From an uncultured delta proteobacterium (GTDB lineage: Bacteria > Myxococcota_A > Polyangia > Palsa-1104), in assembly GCA_963785725.1 (NCBI GenBank), contig CAWAWS010000033.1, positions 256,001-320,000 on the forward strand: a DNA stretch of 64,000 nucleotides, given 5' to 3'. How positions within the stretch are numbered: position 1 is the stretch's first letter; each line of letters opens with the position of its first letter. Shown piece by piece: positions 43,192 to 49,563 of this stretch. The notes beneath the pieces are model-generated. The model was not told the origin of the DNA and did no database searches. It worked only from the letters and a program-made list of their open reading frames with translations. The position numbers and the translations under genes were made by a program.

Positions 43192-44409
43192 ATGTCTGAT
43201 CGACGTCGTCGTGTTGCAATGGGTTGGGCCGTCGCGTCTGCGATCGGGCTGTGCGCGTCTTGCGGGCAGTGTGCCGAGCCGTCGCGCCGCGCACTCTCTT
43301 ATGCTGCTTTGGGCGACGAGCTGGTCGAGGCGGTGCGCACCAAGTTCTTCGATGCCGATCGCGCCGCGCGCTGGGCCGCGCGCAATCGCGGCTTCGCCGG
43401 CGCCATCCGCGACGAGGCGAGCTTCGCGCGCGAGAGCAATCGGCGGCTGGCCGAGCTGGGCGCGTCGCACACCACCTATTTCTCGCCGCTGGCGCCGAAG
43501 ACGGACGAGCTCCGCGCAGTCTTCGAGCCCGAGCTCGGCGCCGCCGACGCGGTGAGCATCGGCGCACAGATCGAGCCGCTCGCCGGGCGCTTCTACGTGG
43601 TGACCCTCTTCCCCGACGGGCCGGCCGCGCACGCCGGGCTCTTGCGTGGCGACGAGATCGTCGCCGTCGATGGGCAGCCGTTCAACCCAGACGGCGCGTG
43701 GCCCGATCGCACACTCGCGGTCGCAATCCGGCGGCACGCCAATGGACCCGTGCAAACGATTGGCGTCACACCGCAGCGGGGCTCGATCAGAAAGGCGTGG
43801 CTGGCGGCCGAGCGCGCCGGCTCGCGCATCGTGACGCGCGCGGGCAAGCAGATCGCTTACGCGTGGATGTGGACCTGCGCCGGCGAGGACTATCAAGATC
43901 TGCTGGCGCAGAGGCTCACGTCCGACTTCGCGGCGGCAGATGCTCTGGTGGTCGATTTTCGCGATGGCTGGGGCGGCTGCAATCCCACCTTCGTGAACCT
44001 GTTCAATCGGGCGGTGCCGACGCTCCGCTCGTTGCGCCGCGACGGCCGCGCCCGTGTCTACGCGCCGGGTTGGCGACGGCCGCTGGTCGTGCTCGTCAAC
44101 CGCCGCACGCGCAGCGGCAAGGAGCTGGTGACGCGCGCGCTGCAGCGCGCCGGGCGTGCCACCGTCGTCGGTGAGCGCAGCGCGGGCGCGGTGCTCGCCG
44201 GCGACCCGATCACCTTGGGCAACGGCGGCATTCTGTACGTGGCCGTCGCCGATCTGCTCGTCGACGAGGAGCGGCTGGAAGGCGTCGGCGTCACGCCCGA
44301 AGTGCCCGTCGACGAGCAGCTGCCGTTTGCCGCCGGCGGCGATCCGCCGCTCGACCGCGCGCTCGAGGTCGCCGCCGACCTGGCCAAGCGCGACGCGGCG
44401 CACCGCTGA
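43192..44409 (+). CDS. S41-family (tail-specific) peptidase with PDZ domain, secreted
   Basis: ASHT, GPAAHAGLLRGDEIVAVDG, VVDFRDGWGG, TRSGKE, VGERSAG, LEGVGVTP. Confidence 0.88.
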   Translation: MSDRRRRVAMGWAVASAIGLCASCGQCAEPSRRALSYAALGDELVEAVRTKFFDADRAARWAARNRGFAGAIRDEASFARESNRRLAELGASHTTYFSPLAPKTDELRAVFEPELGAADAVSIGAQIEPLAGRFYVVTLFPDGPAAHAGLLRGDEIVAVDGQPFNPDGAWPDRTLAVAIRRHANGPVQTIGVTPQRGSIRKAWLAAERAGSRIVTRAGKQIAYAWMWTCAGEDYQDLLAQRLTSDFAAADALVVDFRDGWGGCNPTFVNLFNRAVPTLRSLRRDGRARVYAPGWRRPLVVLVNRRTRSGKELVTRALQRAGRATVVGERSAGAVLAGDPITLGNGGILYVAVADLLVDEERLEGVGVTPEVPVDEQLPFAAGGDPPLDRALEVAADLAKRDAAHR

Positions 44410-44472
44410 CCGACCCATGTTCGACCGCGCGAGAGACGGAATCTCTCGATGACCCGCAACCTGGAGGAACAG

Positions 44473-44658
44473 ATGAAAGACGTGAAGGACGAACTGAAGA
44501 AGCTGAGCAACGAGGCGCTGGCGAGCGTTCGCGGCGGTACCGTCACGCTGCGTCCGCCGTCGCTCGGCGGAGTCGGCGGCGGCAGCGCGCTTCTTTGCGG
44601 CGGCGATGCCATGGCCGAGAGCTGCGTTGCCATCATCCACATCCCCGCCAAGCAGTAA
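44473..44658 (+). CDS. Putative RiPP precursor with double-glycine leader
   Basis: GGAGGA RBS; MKDVKDELKKLSNEALASVRGG|TVTLRPPSLGGVGGGSALLCGGDAMAESCVAIIHIPAKQ. Ends 11 nt before the radical SAM gene. Confidence 0.8.
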   Translation: MKDVKDELKKLSNEALASVRGGTVTLRPPSLGGVGGGSALLCGGDAMAESCVAIIHIPAKQ

Positions 44659-44669
44659 GGAGTAGCCAC

Positions 44670-46145
44670 ATGTCCTCGAAGATCGCTGGCGCCTATCAGA
44701 CGTCTCGTTACAACTTCTTCGTACCGACGATCGAGGCGACGCTGCTTTACAACTCGCTCCACGGAAGCGTCGTCGGTCTGGGCTCGGCGCAAGCGGCCAA
44801 GCTTGCTTCGGCGCTGGCCAAGCCGGGCGTCGCGGTCTTCGAGGATGATCTACCACCCGAGCTGTTCTTGCAGCTCAGCGAAGGGCACTTCGTCGTCCCG
44901 CCGGGAACGGACGAGCTGGCGCTCATCAAAGAGCGCTTTCGCAAGGCGCGCAATGACGCGCCGGCGATTCTGACGATTACGACGACCATGGATTGCAACC
45001 TCGGCTGCTACTACTGTTATGAAGAGCGCTCCGGCGATCAGCTGACCCAGCAAGGCGATCTGGAAGCGCTCGTGGCCGAGGCGCGGCGCCTCGTGACGCG
45101 GCAAAACAAGACGACGCTGCATGTCGATTGGTATGGCGGCGAGCCGCTCCTGAACGTCGAGTTTCTCGAGGTGGCGTCGGCGCGTCTGTGTGCGCTCGCC
45201 GATGAGCTCGGCGTGCATTACGAGGCGTCGATCCTGACCAACGGCACCTGTTGGCCGGAGGATGTGGGCGCCTTCGTGGCGCGACATCGCATCGTCCGCG
45301 TGCAGATTCCGTTCGATGGGCTCAAGGAGAATCACGACAAACGAAGGCATTATCGCAAGGGTTATGCGCCTTCGGAGGACGCGTCGAGCTTCGAGCTGGC
45401 CGCCGCGCTCGTCGGAAAGCTGCTCGACCACACGCGCGTCGACATCCGCTGCAATATCGATCGTTCCAACGGCTCGGACTTTGTCGGGCTGATTCGCTTT
45501 GCACGCGAGCAGGGCTGGTTCGACAAGCGCTTCGCCGCGGTCATTCAACCGGCGCGCTTGACGAAATACTCCGAGCACACGTCGTTCATGCACAAGGCCG
45601 AGCTCGTTCGCAGCGACTTCGACACCGTTCGAGAGGAGATCGAGCGCGCGGTTCCCACGCATGTCGAAGTGCAAAACTCGAAAGTAGCGGCGTTTCCCGA
45701 GCCGCGCTTCTCGGTCTGCGCGGCGCTCAATGAAGATGCCGTCGTCGTCGGCGCCAATGGCTCGCTCTATCGCTGTGGCTTGCAGGTGGGCGAAAAGCAC
45801 CGCGTCGTCGGCGAGCTTCATGGCGCCGCGGCCAAACCGGACAACAAGCGCCATTTACCGCTTCTCGGCGCCGCCGGTAATGACGTCGAATTCTGGCGCA
45901 CATTCGATCCGACGGAGCGCCCGCGCTGCTCGGCCTGCACGTTCTTGCCGATCTGTTGGTCGGGTTGCCCCAAGGTGCATCTCGAAGGCGACGCACTGGC
46001 GATCGCACGGCAAGGCGAATACTGGCGCACCAACCTTCCGCGGCAGGTCGCCAACGGGCTCGGGCTTACGCTCGACGGAGAGTACGCGTTTTCGGCGCAA
46101 GACCAGTTCCCGGATGGCGAGCCCGAGACCCTCTCGCACTCGTAA
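44670..46145 (+). CDS. Radical SAM/SPASM peptide maturase
   Basis: AAGGAG RBS; about 90-aa RRE-like N-terminus, CNLGCYYC, WYGGEPLL, TNG; SPASM C-x18-C and CxxC-x5-C-x3-C. Confidence 0.9.
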   Translation: MSSKIAGAYQTSRYNFFVPTIEATLLYNSLHGSVVGLGSAQAAKLASALAKPGVAVFEDDLPPELFLQLSEGHFVVPPGTDELALIKERFRKARNDAPAILTITTTMDCNLGCYYCYEERSGDQLTQQGDLEALVAEARRLVTRQNKTTLHVDWYGGEPLLNVEFLEVASARLCALADELGVHYEASILTNGTCWPEDVGAFVARHRIVRVQIPFDGLKENHDKRRHYRKGYAPSEDASSFELAAALVGKLLDHTRVDIRCNIDRSNGSDFVGLIRFAREQGWFDKRFAAVIQPARLTKYSEHTSFMHKAELVRSDFDTVREEIERAVPTHVEVQNSKVAAFPEPRFSVCAALNEDAVVVGANGSLYRCGLQVGEKHRVVGELHGAAAKPDNKRHLPLLGAAGNDVEFWRTFDPTERPRCSACTFLPICWSGCPKVHLEGDALAIARQGEYWRTNLPRQVANGLGLTLDGEYAFSAQDQFPDGEPETLSHS

Positions 46146-46427: not shown

Positions 46428-46982
46428 ATGACTAACGCAGTATCCCGCAATCGTATTCTCGGTATCGTCGGCACCTTGGTGCTGGCCGGCCTCGCCAGCG
46501 GCTGCACCTCCGGCGTGCTCGTCGACGAGAACTTCGACACCATCACCGATTCGCGCACGGCCAACGCGTCGGTGACGTTCCAGGAGCTGGGTTCGAACCT
46601 CTTGCCCAACGGCACCGAGTACACCTTCAACCTCAACCACCAGCCGTACATCTCGTTCGACGGGTTCCAGGCCGATGGCGCCACGACGTCCAAATACCCG
46701 GGCCTCGTGAACAGCGGGCATGTCATTCCGAACGGCAACTACCGGGTCGAGTTCTTCCAGCCCCAGGTCGGCTTTGCTTACTCGCCGCGCTTCACGCACT
46801 CGTACGCCAACCCGGGCACCTGCACCGATACCTTCTCCGGCGAGAGCGACGGCGACTGTGCGGTGTACTACTTCGAGCTGAACTACAACTGCCCGGTCTG
46901 CACCGGCTCGAGCTGCGGCGGCATCCAGACGCTGCCGACGCACAACGGCTTCCCGGTCATCGATATGTGCGTGTCCTTCTAA
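46428..46982 (+). CDS. Hypothetical lipoprotein with Cys-rich C-terminus
   Basis: AAGGAG RBS; LASGC lipobox; six further Cys in the C-terminal 55 aa. Confidence 0.7.
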   Translation: MTNAVSRNRILGIVGTLVLAGLASGCTSGVLVDENFDTITDSRTANASVTFQELGSNLLPNGTEYTFNLNHQPYISFDGFQADGATTSKYPGLVNSGHVIPNGNYRVEFFQPQVGFAYSPRFTHSYANPGTCTDTFSGESDGDCAVYYFELNYNCPVCTGSSCGGIQTLPTHNGFPVIDMCVSF

Positions 46983-47019: not shown

Positions 47020-49563
47020 TTAGGATCTGGCGGCGCGACGCCGACGGCGATACGCCACGGCCAGCAGCGCGAGGAGGCTCCACATCCCCGCCGGCGAGCT
47101 CGCGCCGCGTTGCATCTCGCAGCTGCAGCCACCGCCGCTGTGACCAGCGCCGCCGCCACCGCCACCGCTGCCGTGACCGGCGTCGACGCCGCCGCCGGGC
47201 ACGCCCGCATCGTCGACGATGCCGCCGTCCGTCGGCGTCGCCGGGTTCGTGAAGTCGACGGCGATCGTGTGATCGGCCGTGACGTTGGTGAACGTATACG
47301 ACGTCGCCGCGCCGGTATCGAGCCCGTCGACGGTCACGTGCTGCACGACATATCCCGCATGCGGCGTGATCGTGAACGTCTGATCTTGGTTTTGCTCGAG
47401 CGTCACCGCGCCGCTCGGGTCGATGTCGCCGTTGGCATCCGCCGACGCCGTAATCGTGTAAGTGGCGACCGGATTCACCGTCAGGCCGTTTTGCTCGCGC
47501 AAGAGCTCGAACAGAATGTCCGGCCGCACGACGACATAATCGGAGTCGAGCGAATTGGCCACGTTCATGAAGCTGGTCGGCGTCACGCCTTGCCACGGCT
47601 GCGCTTGAATGACCAAGAAGCGAGGCTCCTTGCCGTCCCAGCCGGCCGCCGACGACGCGATGAACTGCTGCATCGCTTGCTCGTTCGTGCAGTAGTTGCA
47701 GGAGAGCGCCATGCTCGGCAGCTTGTTGTCGTAGATGGTCAGCCCGCCGCCGGTGTTCTGCGCGGTCAAGCCGAGCAGCGACGGCGCGTTATCGGCGTAG
47801 CTGTTGCCCACGTCGAGGTCGATGCCGCCCGTGATCGTGTTCCACACGGTGATGATGCGGAAGCCGGCGCGCTGCTCGTACGTGTCCGTCTTGGCGATGA
47901 ACTGTTGCAGCTGGCCGGCGTCGGTCCACGAGTTCGGATAGGTGTAGCCATAACCGGACGGGCCGGACAAGATGCAGTCGTTGTCGGTGGCGCTCGTCCG
48001 GTAATAGTCGAGCGCGCCCGGCATGGCGTCGACCATCGCCGGCGACATCGTCCAGCCCATCGGCACCATGCCGCGGCCGGCGTCGCTCCACAGCTTGCGC
48101 TCGAGGTGCTCGACGTACTGCAGGTTGTCGCCGTCGCTCAAGATGAAGGCGACGTACAGCTTGTTCGCCAGCGTCGGCTTCGGCGGGATCGGCTTGACGT
48201 GAATGGTGCGCGACATGCCGCTGTGCATCGTCAGGTTCGTCGAGAAGTCGCTGGCGATCGTGGCCACGCCGTACTGCGAGGCCAACGTCACGCCCGAGCC
48301 TTCGTCGGTCCACCAACCCATCCAGCGTCCGCCGGCGCCCATCGACGCCAAGAACTGCTTCAACAGCGGCGTGTCGCTCGCCTGCGTCGGATCGAGCCAC
48401 AGCGCGGCCACGCCCAGCGCCGTCGCGTACTCGCGCACGGCGGCGCGGTTCGTCGGGTTGAGCCCGATGGCGACGCGATGATCGAGGGTGGGCCAGACGT
48501 TGTCGTAGAGGTATTGATAGACGGCGAGCTTGCTCGTGAACTGCCCGCGCAGATCCTGCAAAATCGGCAGATTGTAAGGCGCCGCCGTCAGCTTGGCGAC
48601 GAGGCTCGGCGCGACCACGAGCGCCTTCTTCGGCCCGGCCAACGTCGTCGCCAGGTTGACCGTATCGGGCTGCGCGTTCTCGAACACGATGATGCCGGCG
48701 ATCTCGCTGCGATACTTCGTGATCAAGCTCCAGTTGTCGGTCACGTCGGTGTATTGCAGCCCGAGCGACTGCAGCCAGGTGTGCGGCCCTTCGGCGAAGG
48801 CGTCGCCTTCGTACGAGAAGATGCGCGGCTGCGTGGCGTTGACGATGCCCTTCAACGACGCGAACAGCACCAGCTCGTCGTCGGCCTGGCTCTTCGTGAC
48901 ACCGACCCAGTTGACCTTGATATAGGCGGCGCCGAGCCAAAAGACGCGCAGCTCGAGCTGATGATTGTCGGCGCTCAGCGTAAACGGCAGCGACAGCGTC
49001 GTATAGGTCGCGGCGACGGGAAACTGCGTGCGCGTGAAGGTCTGGCTGGCGACGACCTGGTTGGCGGTGGCGTCGTTGACCTCGAGCCGGACGACGGGAT
49101 TATTGTCGGCCGTGTTGTTGTCGATGATCATGCTGAACTGCGCCGTGTTCGCGCCCGCCGGCACCGTCGTGTCGTACGGTCCGTAGATCATGTAGGCGTT
49201 GGCCGTGTCGACGTTGACCTGGCACAGCCAACCGTCGTTATCGAGGTGGCCGGTGTTGTGCGAAAGCTGTGTACCGATGGCGCTCCATTGTTGCGGCGCC
49301 TCTTGCAGCTCGATCAAATCCTGCACCGGCGCCGGCGTCGGAAAGGACGGCAGCAGCTGATCCGCGGGCCAATTGATCGTCGCCGGCAGCGCCGCGGGGT
49401 GCAGCGACGTCGCCGCCGACAGCTGCTGCGTCGGCGCCGGCGAGCAAGCGGCGCAGCTCGCGATGAGCGCGAGGCCGAGCCAGCGGCGACGCGCGTGATA
49501 CGTCGCCGCCACAGCGTTCGGCCGATTGATCCATCGCGCAGCTTCGATTTTCAGGGGTGTCAC
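47020..49563 (-). CDS. GxGYxYP-family putative glycoside hydrolase with MYXO-CTERM anchor
   Basis: SDGDNLQY, PMGWT, SGYGYTYP; Ig-like repeat; C-terminal GGGCSC...LLALLAVAYRRRRR. Confidence 0.85.
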   Translation of the reverse strand: MTPLKIEAARWINRPNAVAATYHARRRWLGLALIASCAACSPAPTQQLSAATSLHPAALPATINWPADQLLPSFPTPAPVQDLIELQEAPQQWSAIGTQLSHNTGHLDNDGWLCQVNVDTANAYMIYGPYDTTVPAGANTAQFSMIIDNNTADNNPVVRLEVNDATANQVVASQTFTRTQFPVAATYTTLSLPFTLSADNHQLELRVFWLGAAYIKVNWVGVTKSQADDELVLFASLKGIVNATQPRIFSYEGDAFAEGPHTWLQSLGLQYTDVTDNWSLITKYRSEIAGIIVFENAQPDTVNLATTLAGPKKALVVAPSLVAKLTAAPYNLPILQDLRGQFTSKLAVYQYLYDNVWPTLDHRVAIGLNPTNRAAVREYATALGVAALWLDPTQASDTPLLKQFLASMGAGGRWMGWWTDEGSGVTLASQYGVATIASDFSTNLTMHSGMSRTIHVKPIPPKPTLANKLYVAFILSDGDNLQYVEHLERKLWSDAGRGMVPMGWTMSPAMVDAMPGALDYYRTSATDNDCILSGPSGYGYTYPNSWTDAGQLQQFIAKTDTYEQRAGFRIITVWNTITGGIDLDVGNSYADNAPSLLGLTAQNTGGGLTIYDNKLPSMALSCNYCTNEQAMQQFIASSAAGWDGKEPRFLVIQAQPWQGVTPTSFMNVANSLDSDYVVVRPDILFELLREQNGLTVNPVATYTITASADANGDIDPSGAVTLEQNQDQTFTITPHAGYVVQHVTVDGLDTGAATSYTFTNVTADHTIAVDFTNPATPTDGGIVDDAGVPGGGVDAGHGSGGGGGGAGHSGGGCSCEMQRGASSPAGMWSLLALLAVAYRRRRRAARS

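Follow-up and report, generated by a model that had tools for sequence, protein, structure and literature searches.

Several described radical S-adenosylmethionine (SAM) systems for peptides that are made on ribosomes and then post-translationally modified (RiPPs) bear on the locus analyzed here. CrpC, which belongs to the TIGR04463 family, has been shown to form thioethers (PMC13692751), and the cysteine donors precede their acceptors in both CrpA (PMC13692751) and PapA (PMC12373016). GggB and QmpB form unnested sactionine rings, yet they resemble ranthisynthases overall (PMC9389541, PMC10288494). In addition, C39 transporters need hydrophobic residues at positions –4, –7 and –12 before the double glycine (GG) of a leader peptide (PMC10885120). 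Novel cross-links emerge regularly from new families of radical SAM RiPPs. We compared these systems with a two-gene locus in a 64,000-nucleotide stretch of DNA from an uncultured delta proteobacterium (assembly GCA_963785725.1, contig CAWAWS010000033.1, positions 256,001 to 320,000 of the forward strand), hereafter the window. The locus encodes a short peptide followed by a radical SAM enzyme with a predicted RiPP recognition element (RRE) and a SPASM domain. We conclude that the two genes are almost certainly a genuine RiPP precursor/maturase pair, and that the radical SAM RiPP family to which they belong is real and, as far as we can tell, undescribed. The features of the locus are as follows.

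44473..44658, + strand: precursor peptide gene, from the translation of a 61-amino-acid (aa) open reading frame (ORF) and a family profile match
44463..44468, + strand: GGAGGA, a ribosome-binding-like sequence 5' of the precursor ATG, from sequence reading
44473..44538, + strand: double-glycine leader, residues 1-22, with V-4, L-7, L-12 and L-15, from the C39 recognition pattern (PMC10885120)
44542..44565, + strand: VTLRPPSL, residues 24-31, corresponding to the family motif V-x-L-x-x-P-x-L in a gap-free alignment register, with Pro 13 residues before Cys42
44587..44643, + strand: conserved core from Ala39 to Ile57, A-L-L-C42-GGDAMAES-C51-V-A53-I-I-H56-I, from conservation across 170 precursors
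44670..46145, + strand: RRE-radical SAM-SPASM maturase of 491 aa, from PF04055, TIGR04085 and the predicted structure
44994..45017, + strand: CxxxCxxC motif (C109, C113, C116), invariant in 116/116 aligned relatives
45717..45980, + strand: SPASM domain with candidate auxiliary cluster I (AuxI) ligands C350, C369 and C433, candidate auxiliary cluster II (AuxII) ligands C420, C423 and C429, and His437, from the analogy with CrpC
43192..44409, + strand: S41-family peptidase gene with a PDZ domain and, by eye, a hydrophobic, lipoprotein-like N-terminus (PF03572, E 2.5e-19)

An earlier, sequence-only reading of this DNA had described an ORF of 61 aa, with two cysteines and a leader of the double-glycine type, 11 nt before the gene for an RRE-radical SAM-SPASM enzyme, and the translation agrees with it: the 22-aa leader ends LSNEALASVRGG, 39 residues follow the GG, the cysteines are Cys42 and Cys51, and 11 nt separate the precursor stop codon from the maturase ATG at 44670. 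It was also right that no Trp, Tyr or Phe occurs after the GG, although His56 went unmentioned. However, the '39-aa core' that it delimited still holds the conserved, leader-like V-x-L-x-x-P-x-L motif, and it overlooked the S41 peptidase gene upstream. An alternative in-frame ATG at 44449 gives a precursor of 69 aa, which is the form annotated in databases; because GGAGG sits 5 nt 5' of the ATG at 44473, the 61-aa form appears to be the likelier one. Against PF10439 the precursor scored 16.3 bits, under the cut-off of 27.1. Two precursor homologues (87% and 67% identity) keep LCGGDAMAESCVAIIHIP intact, and it is present in 3/3 precursors of the window sub-branch. A related copy that is approximately 95% alike was found in one soil DNA run, in which a single contig bridges the precursor and the enzyme. 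No RNA dataset was listed as containing the locus. At the locus, no promoter or terminator signals stood above chance.

Of 7,999 candidates scored against the maturase, 548 matched at E ≤1e-30; the best 120 of these 548, the maturase itself apart, were 47-82% identical to it, and its nearest named relatives came from Kofleriaceae and Myxococcales genomes. The sequence-only reading had made its case depend in part on similar peptides lying upstream of such homologues, and this expectation was borne out. We compiled 88 loci of enzyme relatives (18 genome loci and 70 metagenome contigs), many of which are near-duplicates. All 18 genome loci had, by motif alone, a matching peptide upstream that shares the C-terminal motif, and the precursor profile matched upstream in 79 of the 88, a count that is not independent because the profile descends from the same loci. 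The nine loci missed by the profile comprised three that lacked upstream DNA, three with a related peptide (L077, L081 and L088) and three with nothing. The related peptides end C-x-A-hydrophobic-x-D beside more distant enzymes, and the slightly wider form C-x-A-hydrophobic-x-[DE] is kept upstream of enzymes that are just 27-42% identical (L077, L081, L088 and L117). When a profile built without the window branch was run over the 131,051 six-frame segments of the window's genome, the window ORF came out on top (E 0.093 across the genome, in itself a modest value), and none of 380 control windows contained a strict version of the motif. Together with the 18/18 genome loci, these results speak against a chance pairing. 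Across the whole library, the precursor profile gave 120 matches at E ≤0.001 (representatives at 50% identity), about a dozen of which had no usable Cys pair. As a separate observation, the peptides at L077:3-158, L081:26-226, L088:519-704 and L117:4777-4956 carry extra cysteines (CGC-x3-C, CC-x3-C, CSC-x3-C) and represent sister families.

We also predicted the structure of the precursor-maturase complex, which scored 0.44 compared with 0.01 for the best control (runs 0.30, 0.66 and 0.44), with contact agreement of at least 44% and a partner predicted local distance difference test (pLDDT) value of at least 45. The mark applied was reached by 116 of 157 solved pairs and 2 of 215 mismatched pairs, and scores of 0.60 or lower include only 18 of these solved pairs together with both mismatches. 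The prediction thus lends weak support to binding within the pair. The canonical precursor alone gave no confident fold (pLDDT 66, predicted template modelling score 0.33).

The pair occurs in at least nine phyla, with named hosts in Pseudomonadota, Acidobacteriota, Planctomycetota, Cyanobacteriota, Gemmatimonadota, Bacteroidota, Verrucomicrobiota, Vulcanimicrobiota and Myxococcota, and it is carried on 8 Bradyrhizobium plasmids. Its distribution is patchy. None of the 41 other genomes in the order of the window had a further locus, and neither did any of 400 genomes sampled from the phylum or of 400 sampled from the order of L001, a relative discussed below (three candidates per genome scored for both samples of 400). 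Viral contigs gave two distant enzymes only, and atlas searches added nothing. Because no synteny with close genomes was found at the locus, no insertion boundaries could be defined.

We then determined which precursor residues are conserved, using 170 pooled precursors, of which four are doubtful rows and 166 are clean. Both cysteines are invariant within the consensus A-R-L-C-x5(6)-C-[LIV]-A-[LIV]-[VI]-[ED]-[IVL]. Ala occupies the third position before the first cysteine (Cys1-3) in 147/170 precursors, Leu the position immediately before it in 166/170, Gly the position after it (Cys1+1) in 152/170, and Ala the second position after the second cysteine (Cys2+2) in 164/170; with distant relatives included, this last Ala is the best-kept residue other than Cys. 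The loop between the cysteines, on the other hand, varies in both sequence and length, with a spacing of five residues in 134 of the 170, six in 31, four in 2 and eight in the 3 of the window branch. Positions Cys1+2 and Cys1+3 are Gly in 121 and 32 of the 170, respectively. The V-x-L-x-x-P-x-L motif is moderately conserved (Pro at Cys1-13 in 74, Leu at -16 in 67 and Leu at -11 in 68 of 170).

The maturase scored 45.8 bits against PF04055 (cut-off 29.5) and 33.2 against TIGR04085 (cut-off 27). Its predicted model (pLDDT 92) begins with a unit of three strands and helices, and the closest solved structure is CteB, to which residues 13-465, the RRE included, could be aligned (Z 23.0, root mean square deviation 4.3, 384 aligned). 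This predicted fold and the CteB alignment together indicate an N-terminal RRE. The SPASM region contains Cys350, 369, 420, 423, 429 and 433, with no Cys after C433, as the sequence-only reading had observed for this enzyme; all six, together with K435 and H437, are invariant in 116/116 relatives. A later Cys occurs in 33 of the 116 relatives, 20 of which share a single position 35 residues further along, and none is conserved, so that, as judged from the alignment, the seventh SPASM Cys is absent family-wide. By analogy with CrpC (PMC13692751), AuxI would be ligated by C350, C369 and C433 with one open iron, and AuxII by C420, C423 and C429, for which His437 may be the fourth ligand. The distant relative at L081 (27% identity) keeps a Cys 16 residues past the C433 position and lacks the His, which suggests a Cys-to-His swap at the seventh SPASM ligand. 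We further compared six active-site-proximal positions, using the scheme of PMC10288494. The family consensus is Y,Y,I,S,G,L and the window enzyme has Y,Y,L,P,G,L, compared with F,F,T,S,H,Q in CteB and Y,T,I,S,K,L in StsB (PMC10288494); the consensus is thus the same as the sactisynthase StsB at 4/6 positions and as CteB at 1/6.

Since both precursor cysteines are invariant and the putative AuxI has three Cys as in CteB and CrpC, it is likely that thioethers are formed on both cysteines. In the mechanism that we propose, the RRE would bind the V-x-L-x-x-P-x-L segment, the three-Cys AuxI cluster would hold the substrate thiol, with AuxII perhaps completed by His437, and a 5'-deoxyadenosyl radical would abstract hydrogen from the acceptor, so that each invariant Cys would be joined to a nearby carbon as a thioether with a predicted change of -2 Da. 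If the same register (i+2 or i+3) applies at both cysteines, Cys42 would be linked to Gly44 or Asp45 and Cys51 to Ala53 or Ile54, and an alpha linkage would be forced because Gly is often present at the first acceptor. By our own atom count from the title of the reference, the nine-membered ring of QmpB would likewise correspond to a link from Cys i to the alpha-carbon of i+2. In the myxobacterial branch to which the window belongs, a C39 transporter would cut at the GG and export the product, and the S41 peptidase may trim it outside. On balance, the explanation that we favor overall is an undescribed RiPP pair whose thioethers would most likely close small, unnested rings from sulfur to alpha-carbon, Ala53 being one of the acceptors; the specific proposal of alpha-linked, unnested rings remains tentative.

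Several observations weigh against this explanation. The acceptors are unreadable from sequence alone, and the closest characterized family, that of CrpC, is reported to form non-alpha links (PMC13692751). The window enzyme carries L189 and P214 in place of the family's I and S, which leaves it identical to StsB at only 2/6 positions; its identity to any solved enzyme is <20%, and enzymes that do not form thioethers are also near in fold (anSME, Z 21.8; ChlB, 20.3; SuiB, 19.5; TigE, 19.2). The DNA context is known for 2/7 enzymes of the branch. There is no transporter in the window locus, and the only C39 transporter (PF03412) of this genome, which is 88% complete, lies on another contig, C26.

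One different possibility is a ranthipeptide, which would have the thioether step in common with the favored explanation but another acceptor carbon, with Cys linked to a beta or gamma carbon: Cys42-Asp45 here, within C-x-x-D, and elsewhere a link from the second Cys to an Asp or Glu five residues on, or from the first Cys to Thr. This would suit the top NCBIfam families of the maturase, which are CrpC-like (TIGR04463), Clo7bot, CefB and PapB, and the C-X-X-Q/D motifs of CrpA, whose enzyme CrpC is reported to be a ranthisynthase (PMC13692751). Asp or Glu is present at Cys2+5 in 140/166 clean rows, PapB accepts i+1 to i+7 (PMC12373016), and Thr is present at Cys1+3 in 82/170 precursors. However, the window peptide has His at Cys2+5, where 26/166 rows are without an acid, and Asp or Glu occurs at Cys1+3 in just 8/166 rows and at Cys2-2, the position of Glu49, in 17/170. 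Because these neighboring acids are not conserved, Cys-Asp/Glu links are not favored, and the hint that the sequence-only reading had drawn from acidic residues beside the cysteines is not supported; its broader proposal, a thioether peptide from an unrecognized family, stands as regards the family, for which neither a model nor an open-literature description was found, and thioether chemistry is the best guess. In addition, a basic residue at active-site position 5 binds the acceptor, and this position is Gly in 115/116 relatives, not His as in CteB. We regard the ranthipeptide as unlikely. It is unlikely that the cysteines are untouched and serve instead in a disulfide, in metal binding or as the fourth AuxII ligand, while the enzyme alters the hydrophobic tail by a C-C cross-link, a Val/Ile cyclopropane, epimerization or, here, a cross-link at His56. 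Such a role could explain why the L/I/V pattern of the tail, which is predicted as a strand, is strongly conserved and why His56 is retained in 3/3 precursors of the window sub-branch, and a variable loop between two fixed cysteines would also suit closure by a disulfide; TigE, ChlB and SuiB, which are non-thioether enzymes, stand close in the fold ranking. Nevertheless, no aromatic residue or His is conserved family-wide (W in 2, Y in 25, F in 8 and H in 14 of 170), the epimerase EpeE is well down the same ranking (Z ~16), and an open three-Cys AuxI is the arrangement proposed to bind a substrate Cys (PMC13692751).

With regard to function, the leaderless-type cassette might be an intracellular anti-phage or toxin-antitoxin-like module that was made secreted in the myxobacterial branch alone, which we consider quite improbable. 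Apart from the S41 gene, no neighbor gene is conserved across the family loci, most of which are without a conserved transporter or protease, as an intracellular product would allow. We examined 44 loci picked for flank length and low redundancy (160 ORFs called, 126 Pfam-scanned, 82 PADLOC-scanned) and 20 control regions from three genomes of the window's lineage (104 ORFs, all scanned), setting aside by hand, on both sides, generic kinase, OmpA, methyltransferase and AAA matches. A clear PADLOC defence neighbor was found in 9/44 loci (CBASS, AbiE, short Argonaute, CapP, ThsA-like, Fic, BilD-like), and Pfam revealed a TIR-AAA gene at a tenth locus, compared with 0/20 control regions (10/44 versus 0/20, one-sided Fisher test, P = 0.016, a value overstated by kinship and unmatched controls). 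At L096 (NZ_CP022220.1, 122144-135526), for example, the pair lies between SIR2/DUF87, AbiE and ThiF/JAB genes on a Bradyrhizobium plasmid of 979 kb; at this locus the radical SAM gene has a RefSeq start that leaves out most of the RRE region. However, neither gene of the pair fits a PADLOC model, four of the positive loci are of the Bradyrhizobium type and related to one another, the controls were not taxon-matched, any mobile cassette gathers in such islands, and the window's own neighbors are not defence genes. The association of the leaderless relatives with defence or mobile islands is accordingly a lead only.

Returning to the thioether peptide that we favor, we compared the leaders across the family. 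The common precursor leader is basic and strand-like (LIVSD..P..LKPG..[FL].VV.V.L.DP.L). The double-glycine leader noted by the sequence-only reading is present in the window peptide but is no family trait: it occurs in 4/170 precursors (the window, two close homologues and L001), a count that is a floor because the search favors the common type. Its hydrophobic residues V, L and L at -4, -7 and -12 fit the double-glycine pattern. In a quick enzyme tree (75 rows, partial loci omitted, midpoint-rooted), a single clade of seven, supported by an SH-aLRT value of 100, contains the enzymes of the window and L001. We infer that the V-x-L-x-x-P-x-L segment after the GG may be the element recognized by the enzyme, in front of which the GG leader would have been added later; the direction of this gain is suggested by the GG leader being rare and nested on the midpoint-rooted tree. 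Recognition within this segment fits P0141, a library protein of 112 aa in which two cores stand in tandem, with a strand (VVSV or VVRV) ahead of each. The window copy suggests how a second leader, stacked ahead of the first, can provide a RiPP with a route of export.

The S41 peptidase probably belongs to the cassette. Its gene ends 63 nt 5' of the precursor and shares 48% identity over 363 aa with its counterpart at the same position in L001. In L014, L019, L022 and L023, which come from two other lineages, the pair likewise has an S41 homologue beside it (5/88 loci in total), whereas five close genomes gave 30-31% partial matches or none. The word 'S41' was absent from the main text of a review of RiPP proteases. 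L001 has the same gene order as the window, together with genes for a C39 transporter, a second ATP-binding cassette (ABC) transporter, an outer-membrane factor and HlyD. Export in trans appears possible from these gene contents, and the C39 transporter on contig C26 could serve scattered GG-leader peptides. At that site (L092:7375-12679), a C39 peptidase ABC transporter and two HlyD genes have no obvious precursor adjacent. Two other short ORFs in this genome, on contig C33 near 227948 (+) and on contig C39 near 555863 (-), both outside the window, have GG leaders of a different type with the form KKL[TS][LI]S[KR]ETLR.L[ST]...GG and Thr/Ser/Cys-rich cores, with no synthetase evident by eye among the nearby ORFs; we take them to be akin to lanthipeptide precursors. 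Downstream of the maturase, positions 46428-46982 of the window encode a secreted-looking, Cys-containing protein of 184 aa with no Pfam match and five paralogues in the genome (29-41% identity), a homologue of which was not found beside the family loci, and positions 47020-49563 (-) encode a putative GxGYxYP glycoside hydrolase with a MYXO-CTERM sorting tail. This tail, together with the Kofleriaceae and Myxococcales origin of the nearest named relatives of the maturase, points to a myxobacterium as the probable host. Upstream of the family locus in L019, where genes for a replication initiator and an S41 peptidase are also present, an ORF at L019:1-4146 (-) matches the Pfam SpvB and TcdB-middle models and resembles a Tc-toxin-type component.

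At its most speculative, and with little likelihood in our estimation, the family would be a widespread, undescribed RiPP class in which the seventh SPASM Cys was traded for an invariant His and two cysteines close an unseen ring topology around a variable loop, with Ala or the hydrophobic tail as acceptor; its ancestral form would act within the cell in defence islands, and the myxobacterial branch would have become secreted by grafting of the GG leader and recruitment of S41. An enzyme able to accommodate 5-8 variable residues between two Cys would be of use as a macrocyclization tool, and a His-ligated or open AuxII would extend knowledge of SPASM clusters. The family is broad, consists of just two genes and occurs in cultured strains of Bradyrhizobium, Wandonia and Salinarimonas, and is thus testable at once. 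One canonical pair from a cultured strain is WP_050631493.1 with WP_128929577.1; the annotated start of the latter falls about 225 nt within the match.

We searched for earlier descriptions of the family. The best NCBIfam match of the maturase was TIGR04463 (168 bits versus a cut-off of 525; 152 versus 525 for a Bradyrhizobium member) and the third was FlmE/OhkG (131 versus 500), on which no relevant paper was found in the open-access literature; the enzyme stayed below every NCBIfam family cut-off, and no NCBIfam model matched the precursors. In a set of 3,421 sactipeptide and ranthipeptide precursors (PMC10288494), RLCG and TCLA each occurred 0 times and LCGG once in an unrelated entry, compared with 1,979 occurrences of a control motif. 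The supplements of PMC13692751 gave no match to the family in a search run with no control term. The family motif was not found in the open-access literature, although subscription supplements (the SPECO screen and the RaS-RiPP atlas) may list it as a predicted family, and the screen in PMC9062424 took enzymes of 340-450 aa, which excludes these maturases.

Each of the described systems shares some features with the locus and differs in others. Double-glycine/C39 systems have the same hydrophobic residues at -4, -7 and -12 before the GG; here, however, these occur in one branch only, with no transporter in the locus and a family-specific motif after the GG. StsA/StsB and BlaA/BlaB likewise combine two Cys with a conserved Gly, and StsB shares the 4/6 active-site residues given above with the family consensus. 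Identity with BlaA/BlaB was rejected because the connectivity differs: BlaA has Cys13-Gly22 and Cys15-Gly20 links within a CxC arrangement and BlaB is MftC-like (PMC10288494), whereas the window family has Cx5-8C, its Cys spacing is 4-8 and never 1 in 170 precursors, and the mycofactocin model TIGR03962 scored 38 versus a cut-off of 265. The type 2 sactipeptide systems of GggB (streptosactin) and QmpB resemble the pair, by description only, in having two Cys, a ranthisynthase-like enzyme and candidate small unnested rings, but belong to streptococcal quorum-sensing clusters with another precursor motif and leader. CteA/CteB (a SCIFF ranthipeptide; PDB 5WHY) and PapA/PapB provide the closest solved fold with an RRE and an open AuxI site; CteB and PapB are, however, only 13-15% identical to the maturase, the CteB-type profile F,F,T,S,H,Q contrasts with Y,Y,I/L,S/P,G,L, their precursors have six Cys, and the maturase falls short of the ranthipeptide models NF047865 (94.8 versus 340) and TIGR03974 (51.1 versus 425). 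CrpA/CrpC is alike in its RRE-radical SAM-SPASM architecture, three-Cys AuxI, 19-residue first Cys spacing and Cys-containing substrate encoded upstream (PMC13692751). However, CrpC has a fourth AuxII Cys that is absent from the window family, and CrpA is a 29-kDa protein with repeated C-X-X-Q/D (PMC13692751), whereas the substrate in the window is a peptide of 61 aa with two Cys.

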